NCBI GenBank assembly: GCA_043778225.1
Contig: JAYWGM010000091.1
Span: 1-64,000 of the forward strand
Origin: Deinococcales bacterium
Lineage (GTDB): Bacteria; Deinococcota; Deinococci; Deinococcales; JAAFIG01
Direction: 5' to 3'
Length of the DNA stretch: 64,000 nucleotides
Positions 17,557-24,929 of this stretch are shown one piece after another. Below the pieces are notes generated by a model that was not told the origin of the DNA, searched no databases, and was given only the letters and a program-made list of their open reading frames with translations. The position numbers and the translations under genes are program-made. Numbering within the stretch: position 1 is the stretch's first letter; the number at the start of each line of letters is the position of its first letter.

Positions 17557-20075
17557 AAATTCCGTATTCTTGGCTGGCTGAATTACTGCCCGAACTTCCA
17601 AAAGCAATTGACAACAATCCGCATAACCTCGAGCCGATTCTGGCAATGCTTGGCACAGGTGTCGAAGAGATTGTGTCCTTTCCCGCCCCACCTGAAGGCA
17701 TCATTTTTGGCGTGGTTCTCGAGTGTAGTCCAATTCCCGAAACGCATTTATTCAAGCTCCAAGTGGACGTTGGTCTCGAGAACAAAAAGCAAATCGTGAC
17801 TGGTGCGCCAAATGCTAAAGCGGGTGTGGGCGTAGCTATTGCGCCACCAAACACCACCATTCAAGGCAAACTGCTCGAGGAGCGCTTGGTGCAGGGTGAA
17901 ACCTCGTGGGGGATGGCGTGTAGCCCCAAAGAACTTGGGATTGGAGAGTATGCTGCTGGTTTGCTCGAGTTGCCAGTTAATAATGCGAAGGCTGGTACGC
18001 CGCTCTCGAGCTTCTGGGCGGCAGACTATGTGCTGGACATTGAAATCACCCCCAATCGAGCCGATGCGCTGTCGGTCTTGGGCATTGCCAGAGATTTGGC
18101 GGCAAAACTGAAACTCGAGTTGAAACCCCCGTCAAGCGGTCTCGAGTCAGTGCATGATGATACTTTCCCAGTTCAAATCGAACTCGACCCAAATTTAGGC
18201 TGTGACCGTTTTGTGGCTCGAGTGATTAAAAATGTCAAAAACCAGCCCAGCCCAGCATGGTTGCAACGCCGCCTAAGTTTATGTGGAATGCGTCCAATTT
18301 CTGCACTGGTGGATGCCAGCAATTACATCATGCTCGAGCTTGGGCAGCCGAGCGCAGCGTATGATGCACAGGATATTCCAGAAAATAAAATTGTGGTGCG
18401 AGATGCTGTTCTAGGCGAAAAGGTACTTGGTTTGGATGGTCTCGAGTACGAGTGCAACCCCAAGGATTTATTGGTCACCACCCCAGTAAACGGCGAATCT
18501 CGAGTGGTTGGCATTGGCAGTATGCTTGGCGCGAAATACTCGAGTATCCAACCTGACACGACCGATGTCATTCTCGAAGTGGCGCATTGGAATCCAGTCA
18601 GAATGCGCTTGACTGGACGGCGCTTGGGCATTGCCACCGATGCCCTGTACCGCTACGAGCGTGGTGTTGACCCGAACTTGCCAGTTTGGGCAGCGAACCG
18701 CTATATAGAGCTTGTACAAGCAGCTTGTGGCGGCGTTGTTCTCGAGGGACACCGTGATGTTGGTGGGGAAAAACCAAGAAAGGTGATTGAGATTCGTCCA
18801 GAATTTGTGAATCAGTATTTAGGTACAAATTTTGCTTGGGAAGAGATGCAAGCTGCCCTCGAGCGCTTGGGTTTTGAGGTTGAAGTCACCAATGATACAA
18901 AAATCTTCATGACCAAACCAACCGCAAAATCAGTGACCGATTATGCCGAGCAAAAAAGTATGCCACTTCGAGAAAGTCTAGGTGTTCTACGGTCTCACTA
19001 TGACGAGATTGCTGATAAAGTCGAACCTCTTTGGAAAGTCCACGCCCCAACCTACCGCGTCAACATGGACATCCCCGAGGATTTAACCGAAGAAATTGCT
19101 CGAGTCTTGGGGTATGATTTAATCCCCGAAACATTACCAAATATCAAAGTCAACGACCTCACCCGCAGCACTTCGGAAGCCTATAACCGTACTCGAGAAC
19201 TCAAAAACGCACTGGTCGGCTTGGGTTTTCAAGAGATTGTGTCTTACAGTTTTACCAGCCCCGAAGAAATGAAAATCATGAAATTGCCCGAGCCGATTCT
19301 CGAGCTTAGAAATGCCCAAAGTTCTGAACGCACACACTTGCGCCCATGCTTAATCGGCAGTTTACTGAATGCTGCCAAGACCAATTTGCAAGCCAAAAAT
19401 ATACTGCTGTTTGAAGTCGGACGGGTTTTCCCAAGCCTCGAACTCGAGGAAGAACGGCTTGGCGCACTTTTAATGGGCGATTTTTCCAGCAAAACATGGC
19501 AACCGAGTATGGCTGGCGGTTTCTATAGCTTTAAGGGTTTGCTCGAGGTTGCTGCCACCAAACTGGGGGATGACCTCAAAGTTGTGCCAATCGAAAAACA
19601 CGTGGCGCAAAAACCCGAATGCTTGCATCCCGGAATTGTGGGAGCGCTCGAGTATAACGGGCAATTTGTGGGTATTATCGGCGCGGTACATCCAAGTGTA
19701 TCAGCCGCCCTCGAGTTACCAAGCAACATCATGATTGCTGAAATTCGCTTGCCTTTGCCGACTCGAGCCTGGGCATTTGCCGACCCAAGCCGTCAGCCAG
19801 CCGCAATTCGGGACTTGGCAATTATTGCCGACAAAACCTTAGCGTACTCAAGACTCGAGGAAATCACCAAAAATGCAGCCGGTGCGTTTCTCGAGAGCGT
19901 TGCTCCATTCGATGTTTTTGAATCCGAACGGATTGGTTTTGGTAAGCGTAGCACAGCCATCACCATGACGTGGCGAGCGCAAAACCGAACCCTGACCGAT
20001 GAAGAAGTTGGGGCGGCGTTTCAAAATGTAATTGCGGCGATGCGAACTGCTGGTCTCGAGATTCGGGATTCATGA
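17553..20075 (+). CDS. pheT: phenylalanine--tRNA ligase beta subunit
   Basis: MKIPYSWL, ITPNRADALS, RYERGVD, DLTEEIAR, RDLA. Confidence 0.97.
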   Translation: MKIPYSWLAELLPELPKAIDNNPHNLEPILAMLGTGVEEIVSFPAPPEGIIFGVVLECSPIPETHLFKLQVDVGLENKKQIVTGAPNAKAGVGVAIAPPNTTIQGKLLEERLVQGETSWGMACSPKELGIGEYAAGLLELPVNNAKAGTPLSSFWAADYVLDIEITPNRADALSVLGIARDLAAKLKLELKPPSSGLESVHDDTFPVQIELDPNLGCDRFVARVIKNVKNQPSPAWLQRRLSLCGMRPISALVDASNYIMLELGQPSAAYDAQDIPENKIVVRDAVLGEKVLGLDGLEYECNPKDLLVTTPVNGESRVVGIGSMLGAKYSSIQPDTTDVILEVAHWNPVRMRLTGRRLGIATDALYRYERGVDPNLPVWAANRYIELVQAACGGVVLEGHRDVGGEKPRKVIEIRPEFVNQYLGTNFAWEEMQAALERLGFEVEVTNDTKIFMTKPTAKSVTDYAEQKSMPLRESLGVLRSHYDEIADKVEPLWKVHAPTYRVNMDIPEDLTEEIARVLGYDLIPETLPNIKVNDLTRSTSEAYNRTRELKNALVGLGFQEIVSYSFTSPEEMKIMKLPEPILELRNAQSSERTHLRPCLIGSLLNAAKTNLQAKNILLFEVGRVFPSLELEEERLGALLMGDFSSKTWQPSMAGGFYSFKGLLEVAATKLGDDLKVVPIEKHVAQKPECLHPGIVGALEYNGQFVGIIGAVHPSVSAALELPSNIMIAEIRLPLPTRAWAFADPSRQPAAIRDLAIIADKTLAYSRLEEITKNAAGAFLESVAPFDVFESERIGFGKRSTAITMTWRAQNRTLTDEEVGAAFQNVIAAMRTAGLEIRDS

Positions 20076-20518
20076 TGTTAAGAATTTATTTGGATTGCTG
20101 TTCTTTACAACGTCCTTTTGACGACCAGACCCAGCCTCGAATTAAAGTGGAATCCGAAGCAGTTCTGGCGATTTTAGCAATTGTTGAAAACAGCGAAGTA
20201 ACACTGCTAAATTCGGATGCACTCGAGTATGAAATTAGGCGTATTCCAGATACTATTCGCCGAGTTGAATCACAAGCACTGCTTAGACTCGCTAAAGAAT
20301 TTATTGCCATGTCCTCTGCTATTTCTGTTCAAGCCAATTCGTTTCATGCGCGTGGTATTCGCCCTATGGATGCCGTTCACTTAGCGGCGGCTCATGTTGC
20401 AAAAGCAGATTTCTTTTGTACAACCGATGACAAGTTCTTAAAGGTAGCTCGGGGAATAACGCAGTTATCGTGTAAAGTAGTTTCGGTACTGGATTTATTG
20501 TTGGAGGTTTCATCATGA
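20072..20518 (+). CDS. PIN-domain toxin
   Basis: IYLDCC..RPFDD, DAVHLA, TTDD. Confidence 0.85.
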   Translation: MMLRIYLDCCSLQRPFDDQTQPRIKVESEAVLAILAIVENSEVTLLNSDALEYEIRRIPDTIRRVESQALLRLAKEFIAMSSAISVQANSFHARGIRPMDAVHLAAAHVAKADFFCTTDDKFLKVARGITQLSCKVVSVLDLLLEVSS

Positions 20519-20721
20519 ATGCACAAATTATGCCTATTGCTCAGATTACTCAACAAGCCACTCAAGTGTTGGTTCGTGAATTGGGCGCGGTCAATACGAT
20601 TCGGTTTTTGAATCAGTTTAGGGTTGGTCAAGGTGATTATACTATTGAACGCGAACAGCTTTTTGCAGATACAAGTTTAGAAGAAATTCTGAGTAATTTG
20701 AAACAAAATTATGATTCCTAA
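20515..20721 (+). CDS. putative antitoxin downstream of PIN
   Basis: 68 aa, ELG...TIRFL.QF..G.GDYT.ER; ATGA overlap with the PIN gene. Confidence 0.7.
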   Translation: MNAQIMPIAQITQQATQVLVRELGAVNTIRFLNQFRVGQGDYTIEREQLFADTSLEEILSNLKQNYDS

Positions 20722-21361
20722 AGCTGTCCTATTCGATTTAGACGATACCCTCCATGACCGCCGCTCGAGTGTCGAGGTGTTCACGCCGACTTTGTACCAG
20801 TTTCTCGAGCCGTGGCTGGTTGGCGTATCGCTCGAGGATTTTAGAACTGGGCTGCATCGTCTAGATTACGGCGGTTATGTGCCTCGAGAAGTGTTTATGC
20901 AGCGTTTACTCGAGGCGTTTGGCGCTACAAATTTCGATGCAGTCGAACTGGCTAAATTCTGGCGCTCTGAATTTGCAAACTTTGCCCAACCAATGCACGG
21001 GGCTTATGAATTGCTCGAGTTTTTGCGGCTCAGAGGAATCAAAACGGGTATTGTCTCGAATGGGACGGTACAGTTACAGCAAGCCAAAATAGTTGCGCTC
21101 GAGTTAAAAGTGGATGTAATCGTTATTTCTGAAGCAGTTGGTGTTAAAAAACCTTCTGCCGAGCCGTTTCTCGAAGCGTTGCGGTTGCTCGAGGTTCAGG
21201 CATCCGAAACATGGTTTGTTGGCGATCATCCTGTTAATGATGTAGAAGGAGCTATGGCGGTTGGCATCAAAGCGTTTTGGCTCGAGCGGGAGCAAAAAGC
21301 TGAAGCTATGCAAGCCACACGAATTTTAAGTTTACTCGAGCTGCGCGGGTTTCTCGAGTAA
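20711..21361 (+). CDS. HAD-superfamily hydrolase
   Basis: FDLDDTL, SNG, KP, VGDHPVND. Confidence 0.92.
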   Translation: MIPKAVLFDLDDTLHDRRSSVEVFTPTLYQFLEPWLVGVSLEDFRTGLHRLDYGGYVPREVFMQRLLEAFGATNFDAVELAKFWRSEFANFAQPMHGAYELLEFLRLRGIKTGIVSNGTVQLQQAKIVALELKVDVIVISEAVGVKKPSAEPFLEALRLLEVQASETWFVGDHPVNDVEGAMAVGIKAFWLEREQKAEAMQATRILSLLELRGFLE

Positions 21362-21369
21362 TGAAACAA

Positions 21370-21400
21370 CAAAAAAGACCGAAGTGAATGCTTCGGTCTT
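21370..21400 (-). terminator. intrinsic terminator (probably bidirectional)
   Basis: AAGACCGAAG-N6-CTTCGGTCTT stem; T tract on the minus strand. Confidence 0.85.
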
Positions 21401-21584
21401 CTCAGTACCCGTCTGGAATTGGGACTTGTCCCACCACTCGGGTTTCTCGCGTTCTGGCTGCGTCCTTTGTCGGACGCTATTCAGAGGCGAAGTGCAAACG
21501 CTAAGCGTTTACAGGGTTAGCCCCGACGGGCACCTCCACCAACTTGATTTATATGTAACAGCTGGATCACCTCCTTTTTGGTAT
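21370..21584 (-). ncRNA. candidate structured RNA with a 5' 17-nt complement of the 16S rRNA 3' end
   Basis: TACACT -10 at 21596-21591, multi-stem domain 21405-21533, terminator 21370-21400. Confidence 0.6.
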
Positions 21585-21605
21585 GGACAGAGTGTATCAT
21601 ACTTT

Positions 21606-22592
21606 GTGACCGAAAATGTAATCAAGAATGCGAACTCGAGTCTAAGCCATCCGACTTATGCGCCCCTGCTCTGTGTTGGCGACCTCAACTGGGATGTCTT
21701 GGCAAAACCCGACCATATTTTATTAAGTGGCGGCGATACAACCGGACGGGTGCAACTCGCCCACGGTGGCTCGAGTGCCAATGTGGCGGTTTGGGCGCGA
21801 CGGGTCGGGATGCCAACTGGTTTTTTGGGCAAAATTGGGCGCGACCAATTTGGAGCGTTTGCGCTGGCTAAACTCGAAGAAGAACAAGTTGTGCCGTATA
21901 TGATTTGGTCGGAGCAGCACGCCACTGGTGTGGTTTTGGTGCTGATAGACTCGAGCGGACAACGCAGTATGTTGACCAATCAAGGCGCAGATTTTTTTCT
22001 TTTGCCAGACGAACTGCCAAGAGGTGTGATTGCGGCGGCAAAACACGTCCATATCACGGCTTGGAGCTTATTTACCGACCCACCTCGAGCCGCCGCCCTC
22101 GAAGCCGCCCGAATTGCCACCGAAGCTGGCGCAACCGTCAGCTTTGACCCGGGGAGTTACCAAATGATTCGCCAGATGGGACGCGAGGAATTCAAACGCG
22201 CCACCAAAGCACTTTCGATAGACATTATGTTTCCAAATCTCGAGGAAGGTAGGGCTTTAACCGGCGCACAAAACCCCGAGGACGTTTTAGCTGCCCTGCG
22301 CCAAGAATATCCAGAAACGCTGATGTGCCTAAAACTTGATAAAGATGGTGCAATGGTGGCTGACTCGAGCAGTATCTTTCAAGTTGAAGCCACCAAAGAC
22401 ACGGTTATAGATGCAACAGGCGCTGGCGATAGTTTCTGCGGGGCGTTCCTTGGGCATTATCTGCGTTCTAAGGATGCTCGAGCCGCCGCTGCACTGGCTG
22501 CCCAAGTGGCGGGTTGGGTGGTCAGCGTGTTTGGTGCAAGACCCGAAATGGAGTCAAATCTCGAGGAGCGGATAAAAAAATATGGCTATTGA
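21606..22592 (+). CDS. PfkB family carbohydrate kinase
   Basis: GGSSANVA and DATGAGDSF; GTG start inferred just after TATCAT (the ORF track over-extends to 21384). Confidence 0.88.
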   Translation: MTENVIKNANSSLSHPTYAPLLCVGDLNWDVLAKPDHILLSGGDTTGRVQLAHGGSSANVAVWARRVGMPTGFLGKIGRDQFGAFALAKLEEEQVVPYMIWSEQHATGVVLVLIDSSGQRSMLTNQGADFFLLPDELPRGVIAAAKHVHITAWSLFTDPPRAAALEAARIATEAGATVSFDPGSYQMIRQMGREEFKRATKALSIDIMFPNLEEGRALTGAQNPEDVLAALRQEYPETLMCLKLDKDGAMVADSSSIFQVEATKDTVIDATGAGDSFCGAFLGHYLRSKDARAAAALAAQVAGWVVSVFGARPEMESNLEERIKKYGY

Positions 22593-24852: not shown

Positions 24853-24929
24853 GCGCCCGTAGCTCAGTCGGATAGAGCGTTGCCCTCCGGAGGCAAAGGT
24901 CAGAGGTTCGAATCCCCTCGGGCGCACCA
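24853..24929 (+). tRNA. tRNA-Arg(CCG)
   Basis: 77-nt cloverleaf, anticodon loop CTCCGGA, GGTTCGAATC, encoded CCA. Confidence 0.96.

Follow-up and report, generated by a model that had tools for sequence, protein, structure and literature searches.

The window analysed here is a 64,000-nucleotide (nt) stretch of DNA from a Deinococcales bacterium (contig JAYWGM010000091.1, positions 1 to 64,000). The subject is a small RNA unit on its minus strand, at approximately 21584-21366, in the gap between the gene of a HAD-family hydrolase and that of a pfkB-family sugar kinase (Table 1). Read along the minus strand, the order is a -35/-10 pair, the 17-mer AAAGGAGGTGATCCAGC, an A/U-rich stretch, a closed multi-stem domain, and a terminator. 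An earlier note on this DNA had proposed that a stand-alone structured RNA lies here beneath a false extension of pfkB, and this was borne out: a promoter-like site and a terminator are called, the fold is unusually stable (given below), and pfkB begins at GTG 21606. From that codon PfkB has 328 amino acids (aa) and matches the 328-aa PfkB of a relative end to end, without gaps, at 90 % identity; the 402-aa open reading frame (ORF) call at 21384-22592, which runs over the RNA element, is therefore an over-extended pfkB and an artefact.

The TGA-TACACT element taken by the earlier note for a -10 is an extended -10, overlapped by a called sigma-70-like TATGAT. In relatives from each of the three families that carry the element, a TAnnnT box precedes the conserved 5′ block by a constant distance, therefore the 5′ end of the RNA is likely to lie only a few bases ahead of the Shine-Dalgarno (SD) sequence. 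The terminator that the note had placed at the other end was located, with its U run, and a strict test (a hairpin of -8 kcal/mol or better and a run of at least four T within 80 nt) was passed by 34 of 54 copies. The note had not recognised a known family in the RNA. An Rfam 15 scan likewise gave no family at gathering score over it; when matches with E up to 10 were taken between 21300 and 21700, there were nine weak ones, mostly on the terminator, of which the best was ar35 (E = 0.056, 21.2 bits against a gathering score of 45) and among which RF02471 (actinobacterial Ms_IGR-5) did not appear. The sole Rfam gathering-level match in the window is a tRNA gene at 24853-24926 on the plus strand.

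The most striking feature of the unit is its complementarity to the 3′ end of the 16S rRNA. This had been described as a perfect match over 17 nt. The 17-mer is at the place described, but the organism's own 16S rRNA has GUUGG, not GCUGG, and the duplex is thus made of 15 Watson-Crick pairs, one G.U pair and one C-G pair; with wobbles, duplexfold extends it to 20 pairs. The 16S 3′ end (...GCGGTTGGATCACCTCCTTTCT) was read from the last 46 bases of the gene on contig G000:C106; the assembly is without a complete 16S gene, and this contig starts with those final 46 bases. The same 3′ end was found in 11 of the 19 genomes in the window's own family, in both rRNA operons of one complete genome from that family, and in all five genomes checked from two other families, one of which reads GCTGG for GTTGG. 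In family 2, genome G031 (locus L124) has GCGGCTGGATCACC in its 16S where all the others checked have GCGGTTGGATCACC, and the opposite base of helix 45 changes too (GTAGCTG vs GTAACTG).

Within the genome this site stands alone. Among 1851 GGAGG sites in the 4.03-Mb assembly, the longest perfect complement of the 16S tail is the 15 nt found here, followed by 12 nt at one site and 11 nt at five; only the antisense strand of the rDNA itself exceeds 15 nt. The duplex with the 16S tail has an energy of -35.5 kcal/mol, compared with -26.8 for the runner-up and a median of -14.6. An origin as an rDNA fragment was rejected, as the flanks of the 17-mer are unlike the 16S sequence or its spacer.

The element is not confined to this genome. 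With blastn, one copy per genome was found in 17 of the 18 other genomes of family 1, the window's own uncultured family of the Deinococcales, and no match in 22 genomes from four other families of the order. A covariance model, made from 18 copies with a hand-set structure and searched against 151 genomes of the order, reached further. It found one copy each in 17 of 18 genomes of family 1 and in 33 of 37 genomes of family 2 (E from 1e-7 to 5e-18), and one strong match (5e-22) plus two weak ones among 36 genomes of family 3; there was none in the 23 genomes of family 4, and only three weak matches among the 36 of family 5. The five weak matches (E 7e-4 to 7e-3; genera g7 and g9) were judged to be false, as they look like GC-rich coding DNA without the 3′ stem. 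An exact-pattern scan of 185,579 species, with one genome each, gave 23 loci, of which 18 are real (17 in Deinococcales metagenome-assembled genomes (MAGs), one in a Deinococcaceae MAG) and five are chance matches in other phyla. The same type of scan in metagenomes gave one full copy, one truncated copy, and one chance match. One metagenome contig (L043, minus strand) has the promoter, SD, short frame and first part of the fold, with unrelated sequence from about 55 nt after the stop, and could be an assembly chimera or a rearranged copy.

The earlier note had made its proposal depend on whether relatives keep the anti-16S segment and the stems, and relatives keep both that segment and the closing stem. 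At the 16 tail-facing positions of 46 aligned copies, 728 of 736 cells are able to pair. At positions 3-16 the only substitutions are A to G where the tail has U and C to U where it has G, which preserves the pairing. The eight cells that do not pair face the final two bases of the tail and come from the window's genus and one MAG; these two bases are unmatched in the window's genus, and other lineages pair all 16 positions. In all three families the complement of the entire single-stranded 16S tail is the invariant 5′ block of the element. Extension of the pairing into helix 45, as the note had also suggested, stands only in part: the further match (CCAGCUGU or CCAACUGU) occurs in family 1, in the single carrier genome of family 3, and in one MAG, but in family 2 these bases are replaced, with at most a weak predicted GGUC/GACC hairpin in their place. 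Invasion of helix 45 as a conserved purpose was rejected on the absence of the extension from family 2. CsrA binding requires GGA, and a CsrA-type decoy was also rejected, as GGA is not kept (the first motif is GGGGG in two genera, the second GUAGG in one).

Long SD matches were sought elsewhere with a 14-nt pattern in 101 genomes of the order; 40 of the matches were not listed. Taken as a group, most of the GATCC-type hits among those listed have the counts and contig-edge positions expected of rDNA. Seven GGTCC-type sites were fetched: three continue an open protein frame, two lie directly before a TTG-started frame, and two could not be resolved. Two of the three open frames presumably encode a cell-wall amidase and the TTG-started frames an HTH regulator. 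The conserved short frame and stem after the SD were found at none of the seven. In family 4, loci L130 and L131 have an ordinary gene, which we take to encode an HTH regulator, with a 14-nt SD match and a TTG start immediately after it, with zero spacer. This shows that long predicted SDs occur on normal genes of this order too.

Such a conserved complement, changed only in ways that keep the pairing, could belong to a purely non-coding ribosome decoy, an RNA that binds the anti-SD of the 30S subunit and sequesters or silences it, as in hibernation, or that shifts the balance between SD-led and leaderless initiation, its short frame never being translated. Many mRNAs of the Deinococcota are leaderless. 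A sequestering or hibernation-type RNA was one of two possibilities raised in the earlier note, the other being a dual-function RNA that encodes a micropeptide with a non-AUG start. That no copy among the 54 has an AUG at SD distance is consistent with a decoy. The comparative data favour the dual-function alternative, because the decoy leaves a protected reading frame unexplained.

This frame is the small ORF (sORF) of 14 codons with a CUG start that the earlier note had picked out, and it is open and in frame across three families. The C of the CUG is the final base of the 17-mer; in family 2, 1-3 nt lie between the complement and an AUH codon. The frame that runs from GGA-GGU to the UAA in GGGGCUAA is the same as the CUG frame. 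Between the SD and the GGA codon, the 42 distinct sequences have two stops in the sORF frame, compared with 50 and 31 in the other two, and both of the two belong to one genus with a spacer 1-2 nt shorter, leaving the frame stop-free in 40 of 42. If the spacer were untranslated, it would not be expected to lack stops in a single frame and no other. An in-frame near-cognate start, 5-10 nt beyond GGAGG, occurs together with a stop at the one fixed position in 52 of 54 copies (40 of 42 distinct). The start codons of the distinct sequences are CUG (18), AUU (13), AUA (5), AUC (5), and UUG (1); neither GUG nor AUG occurs at SD distance. CUG is used in family 1, in the family 3 copy, and in seven copies of family 2, and AUU, AUA or AUC in the remaining family 2 copies; these four lie 5-9 nt after GGAGG, and the UUG, in one MAG, lies at +10. 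The sORF has 12-15 codons and ends with UAA in 29 distinct sequences, UAG in 10, and UGA in one. The distance from SD to stop ranges from 49 to 53 nt and the start codon shifts along with it, so that the frame is kept. A decoy would keep neither three interchangeable stop codons at one site nor a frame through changes in length. Titration by one gene copy against thousands of ribosomes is also implausible, unless expression is very high, and the decoy is considered unlikely.

Whether the peptide is what is conserved can be judged from where the conservation falls. Codons 2-7 show no amino acid conservation; the second half reads (T/V)(S/G)GG(A/T/V/S)R(R/L/P/Q)G, and it coincides with stems P1 and P2′ and with a second SD-like hexamer. 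The stop codon lies inside a stem, and the last six codons with the stop form the 5′ strands of the rod made by P1 and P2′. All 54 copies have G(G/U)AGGU as the hexamer, 52 of them GGAGGU, and synonymous changes do not occur in its two Gly codons, which points to a constraint at the RNA level. As read from these alignments, the conservation of the C-terminus looks RNA-driven.

An ordinary small-protein gene would have the 14-aa peptide (x7-GG-A/T-R-x-G) as its product, with the giant SD to offset the weak start and the 3′ structure only to stabilise the mRNA. As this would require, 52 of 54 copies keep the frame, its length and the residues of the C-terminus, and the RreB and RreR peptides of the alphaproteobacterial genes discussed below are each conserved within their clade (Hahn et al., 2016; PMC5711450). 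The variable first half and the unchanging Gly codons fit poorly with it, as does residue 12, which can be R, L, P or Q. In codons 12-13 the families are separated by two substitutions; both are synonymous, and one makes up half of an A-U to G-C exchange in P2′, therefore the conservation follows the RNA helices. In addition, a covarying rod of more than 100 nt exceeds what a stabiliser needs, and AUG has been avoided by selection at the start site in about 50 genomes. A small-protein gene of the usual kind is thus quite unlikely.

A stretch of 226 nt folds at -89.2 kcal/mol, compared with -62.9 +/- 4.1 in 200 shuffles (z = -6.4), and no shuffle was as good. In an alignment of 50 copies, 89.9 % of the cells of the whole fold are paired, compared with 37-65 % when partners are slid by 1-3 columns. 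Changes on both sides of a pair are seen in 71 cells, compared with 31.6 +/- 4.3 in shuffles, and none of 500 shuffles reached 71. As the alignment was fitted to the structure of the covariance model, these pairing counts lean towards that structure.

The closing stem P1, as the earlier note had drawn it, is in the minimum free energy (MFE) structure and is retained in relatives, with 94.7 % of cells paired in 50 sequences; single pairs switch between U-A, U.G and C-G, and between G.U, G-C and A-U. The hairpin that the note had put at 21432-21421 is more likely to be the 3′ strand of the long-range helix P2′, on the evidence of covariation and of the folds in other genera. Both sides change in four of the seven pairs of P2′, one of which is A-U in 24 sequences and G-C in 18; in the window's own sequence, the local hairpin is an equal alternative. 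The two other inner hairpins of the note were found, but they belong to a lineage-specific variable insert. The interior of P2′ varies in length and shape, and the two shortest versions lack the insert altogether. The asymmetric loop between the 3′ strands of the two helices is 7-8 nt long across copies, with a CCAG core that is nearly invariant in the alignments. A pseudoknot of this CCAG loop with GUUGGUGG was set aside on topology, by inference only. Within the insert there is an anti-SD-like CGCCUCU (21489-21483). An internal anti-SD copy was rejected as an essential part of the element, as only 32 of 54 copies have CCUC(C/U) in their 3′ domain and the two minimal versions lack it. At the 5′ end, the predicted hairpin P0 (ACCAC/GUGGU in family 2) would expose AAAAAGGA, the SD's 5′ half, in a loop and mask the 3′ half, and the predicted P0b would enclose CCAGCU and the start codon.

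A stand-alone, structured RNA that ends in a terminator could also be a trans-acting base-pairing small RNA, which would target other RNAs through its purine-rich 5′ segment or through the C-rich 3′ strand of P2′, the 16S match being a side effect. The rod does mask C-rich strands that would be able to pair with the SD regions of mRNAs. However, the conserved segment matches the 16S tail over its entire length, not over a shorter seed, and the protected frame goes unexplained; such a role is highly improbable.

Table 1. Features of the minus-strand RNA unit and of its two neighbouring genes. Strand pairs are given 5′ strand first.
Feature	Coordinates	Strand	Description
Promoter-like region	21591-21625	-	Consensus scan; 5′ end of the RNA inferred near 21584
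Sigma-70-like -35	21625-21620	-	TTGATT; 18-nt spacer to the -10
-10	21601-21596	-	TATGAT; overlaps extended -10 TGn-TACACT at 21599-21591
P0	21568-21583	-	Short 5′ hairpin, UACC 21583-21580 / GGUG 21571-21568; RNAalifold, 18 family copies
Giant SD	21558-21577	-	17-mer 21577-21561; wobble pairing extends to 21558
P0b	21539-21565	-	Hairpin, CCAGCU 21565-21560 / AGUUGG 21544-21539; A/U-rich loop holds sORF codons 2-6
sORF	21517-21561	-	CUG 21561-21559, 14 sense codons (LLHINQVGGGARRG), UAA 21519-21517
Second SD-like hexamer	21532-21537	-	GGAGGU; codons 9-10 (Gly-Gly); ends 10 nt before the last sense codon
P1	21405-21533	-	Closing stem, GUGCCCGUC 21533-21525 / GACGGGUAC 21413-21405; 5′ strand is sORF codons 10-12
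P2′	21421-21524	-	Long-range helix stacked on P1, 21524-21519 / 21426-21421; per-sequence MFEs in other genera
Variable insert	21427-21518	-	Inside P2′; lineage-specific hairpins 21512-21494 and 21477-21460
Asymmetric internal loop	21414-21420	-	AAUUCCA; between the 3′ strands of P2′ and P1
Intrinsic terminator	21366-21403	-	13-bp stem-loop 21403-21372, then U run UUUUUUGUUGUUU
pfkB-family sugar kinase	21606-22592	+	Divergent neighbour; true start GTG 21606
HAD-family hydrolase	20711-21361	+	Convergent neighbour; ends about 5 nt from the U tract of the RNA

The genes around the element differ between families. In family 1, pfkB is divergently upstream in at least 12 of 19 loci (Pfam PfkB in 11 loci besides that of the window). 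In at least 13 of the 33 loci of family 2 (for example L082, L084, L091 and L094), the divergent neighbour encodes an approximately 450-aa protein, in which residues of about 300-375 form a 4Fe-4S dicluster domain. The convergent gene downstream in family 2 is often BioY or a GNAT acetyltransferase. Neighbouring ORFs were chosen by a simple script, and 42 of 103 had no Pfam hit; the 31 downstream neighbours with a hit are convergent in 21 cases and co-directional in 10, spread over many families. Judged by this gene order, the RNA unit is not the leader of a downstream gene. In genus g5 of family 1 (L013-L016 and L018) there is a conserved co-directional ORF of 147-150 aa without a Pfam match, about 55 nt after the terminator; it has a GTG start behind its own TAGAAT-like box and may be leaderless. 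Elsewhere in the window, at 20072-20721 on the plus strand, pheT is directly followed by two small overlapping ORFs of 148 aa and 68 aa, of which the first overlaps the pheT stop by 4 nt. The 148-aa product presumably is a PIN-domain toxin, of which the 68-aa product could be the partner.

In leader-peptide attenuators of the trpL and ermCL type, translation of a short ORF melts the first strand of a downstream stem and a terminator follows. The layout here is similar, with an SD, a short ORF that overlaps the first strand of a stem, and a terminator, and the element could be a ribosome-dependent leader, with the translated mini-ORF governing whether transcription passes the terminator into a neighbouring gene, or antisense to it. 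The co-directional ORF of genus g5 would suit such a role; it has its own -10-like box, however, and with the downstream genes largely convergent and of unrelated families, no downstream family is conserved. Unlike the attenuators, the element has no regulated downstream gene and no alternative antiterminator was seen: by inspection of the window's own sequence, the 3′ strands of the rod do not pair with the 5′ half of the terminator. The SD is also far longer than a leader needs. Attenuation is therefore a very remote candidate.

The closest known counterpart is rreB of the Bradyrhizobiaceae (Hahn et al., 2016; PMC5711450). It is an mRNA of 165 nt with its own promoter and terminator; a 17-nt complement covers the whole single-stranded 3′ end of the 16S rRNA and takes in the initial base of a GUG start, and the product has 14 aa. 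The RNA co-sediments mainly with the 30S subunit and is weakly translated, for which the long SD and the GUG codon are both responsible; with a stop in place of the start codon, the half-life goes up from 10 min to 37 min. The location of rreB on 30S subunits would also be in keeping with the decoy considered above. According to the authors, analogues of rreB (rreR, with 18 codons) are found only in four alphaproteobacterial orders, and the RreB and RreR peptides have no similarity to one another.

Set against this account, the Deinococcales element is also, by prediction, a free-standing small transcript with a promoter and terminator of its own. The complement covers the whole single-stranded 16S 3′ end and is long by the standard of at least 16 nt (15 Watson-Crick pairs alone, 17 with the G.U, or 20 by duplexfold). 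The start codon is weak, its first base is the last of the complement, and the sORF has 14 codons. In rreB, only the 5′-most SD bases are predicted to be single-stranded and the remainder to lie in a hairpin, an arrangement that P0 and P0b, as predicted, may resemble. In both, a single copy is conserved within a bacterial family. The element differs in phylum (Deinococcota, not Alphaproteobacteria), in length (about 215 nt and not 165 nt), in having the 3′ end of the sORF and its stop built into a covarying two-helix rod, and in the second, invariant GGAGGU inside the frame. It also starts with CUG, AUU, AUA or AUC in place of GUG, by which the principle of a weak start is kept. The element appears to share the features of rreB that can be tested on sequence, except for the identity of the start codon; binding to 30S, weak translation, and decay dependent on the start codon are demonstrated for rreB only. 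A 16-17-nt extended SD directly before a short conserved sORF is common to the element, to rreR of the Rhodobacter/Roseobacter clade, and to the other rre genes, as is a genomic context that is not conserved between lineages and peptides that are unrelated between clades. Unlike the element, rreR is 18 codons long and starts with GUG (in Azospirillum, where it is on a plasmid, with ATG), and it is known only from sequence alignment and from CD and NMR of a synthetic peptide.

The conserved near-cognate start also has a parallel outside the rre genes. The infC gene, which encodes initiation factor 3 (IF3), is autoregulated through an AUU start, and a near-cognate start makes initiation dependent on fidelity. 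Like infC, the element has conserved a start that is not AUG; unlike infC, which encodes the factor itself, it encodes a 14-aa peptide or nothing. A link to IF3 is speculation.

Taken together, we consider it probable that the RNA is an rre-type small mRNA of about 215 nt, separately transcribed, which docks on the small ribosomal subunit and is weakly translated. It is our verdict that the element is a Deinococcota variant of the rreB/rreR kind, possibly unrelated in sequence, and we take it that selection keeps the RNA more than the peptide. The earlier interpretation was partly right overall. By analogy with rreB, the SD bases exposed in the 5′ loop would seed a helix of 14-20 bp with the anti-SD, which would open P0 and P0b and grip the 30S subunit very tightly. 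With a near-cognate start and an over-long SD, productive initiation would be rare. A ribosome that did initiate would have to melt the rod of P1 and P2′ before it reached the stop, by which translation would remodel the RNA, would probably set its lifetime, and might bring about its decay. At termination the ribosome could be held by the second GGAGGU, which lies 10 nt ahead of the last codon. Our guess is that the RNA serves to read out, or to buffer, either the free 30S subunits or how stringent initiation is.

A more elaborate version of this mechanism is a trans-acting gauge or governor of initiation. The RNA would clamp the anti-SD of free 30S subunits with a helix of at least 16 bp and would be released only when the near-cognate start evades proofreading and the ribosome melts the rod. 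The clamped pool, or the state of the RNA, would then track the stringency of initiation and possibly the level of IF3, and would shift the balance between SD-led and leaderless mRNAs, with the second GGAGGU re-capturing the terminating ribosome. This version is speculative and very unlikely.

A number of observations weigh against an rre-type mRNA. The conserved C-terminal residues are indistinguishable from constraints on the RNA structure. About 20 of 33 family 2 copies, one genus of family 1, and the single family 3 copy (counted by eye) have a further AUG, GUG or UUG in frame, nine codons ahead of the stop, and the sORF may start there instead. CUG, AUA and AUC are very poor start codons, and translation may be negligible. 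In genus g2 of family 1 (L011 and L012, two of the 54 copies), which has a spacer 1-2 nt shorter, there is a frame-shifted ORF of 23 codons that ends at another UAA inside the variable insert; the usual stop is mutated, the second GGAGGU reads GUAGGU, and between the two 23-codon peptides there are two changes, one conservative and one not. At the 5′ end, all P0 cells are paired (100 % in 50 sequences), but the changes are one-sided and give no covariation, and P0b is a feature of the window's own family that is not conserved between families. Twenty-fold overproduction of rreB in Bradyrhizobium japonicum did not change growth, a result that also counts against a decoy, and the authors found no function (Hahn et al., 2016; PMC5711450). 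Finally, the likeness seen to rreB and rreR is one of design and may be convergent.

Literature searches, with subscription-only papers outside their reach, found no report of such an RNA in the Deinococcota. A search for rreB together with Shine-Dalgarno returned one paper only, in which rre-type mRNAs are described only in the Alphaproteobacteria (PMC5711450). The version in this distant phylum shares three features with them: an SD of the length of the 16S tail, a weak start, and a frame that extends over about 14 codons and into structure. These shared features suggest that the design is either very old or has been reached repeatedly, and hence is a general, unrecognised way to engage ribosomes. 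The Deinococcales set goes beyond the published cases in its near-cognate starts, which are exclusively non-NUG or CUG, and in the covarying rod that contains the stop. Its approximately 50 diverged copies are enough for the design of compensatory mutants, and the complete genomes within family 2 would provide a second system for the questions raised by rreB, namely its role on the 30S subunit and why translation destabilises the RNA.

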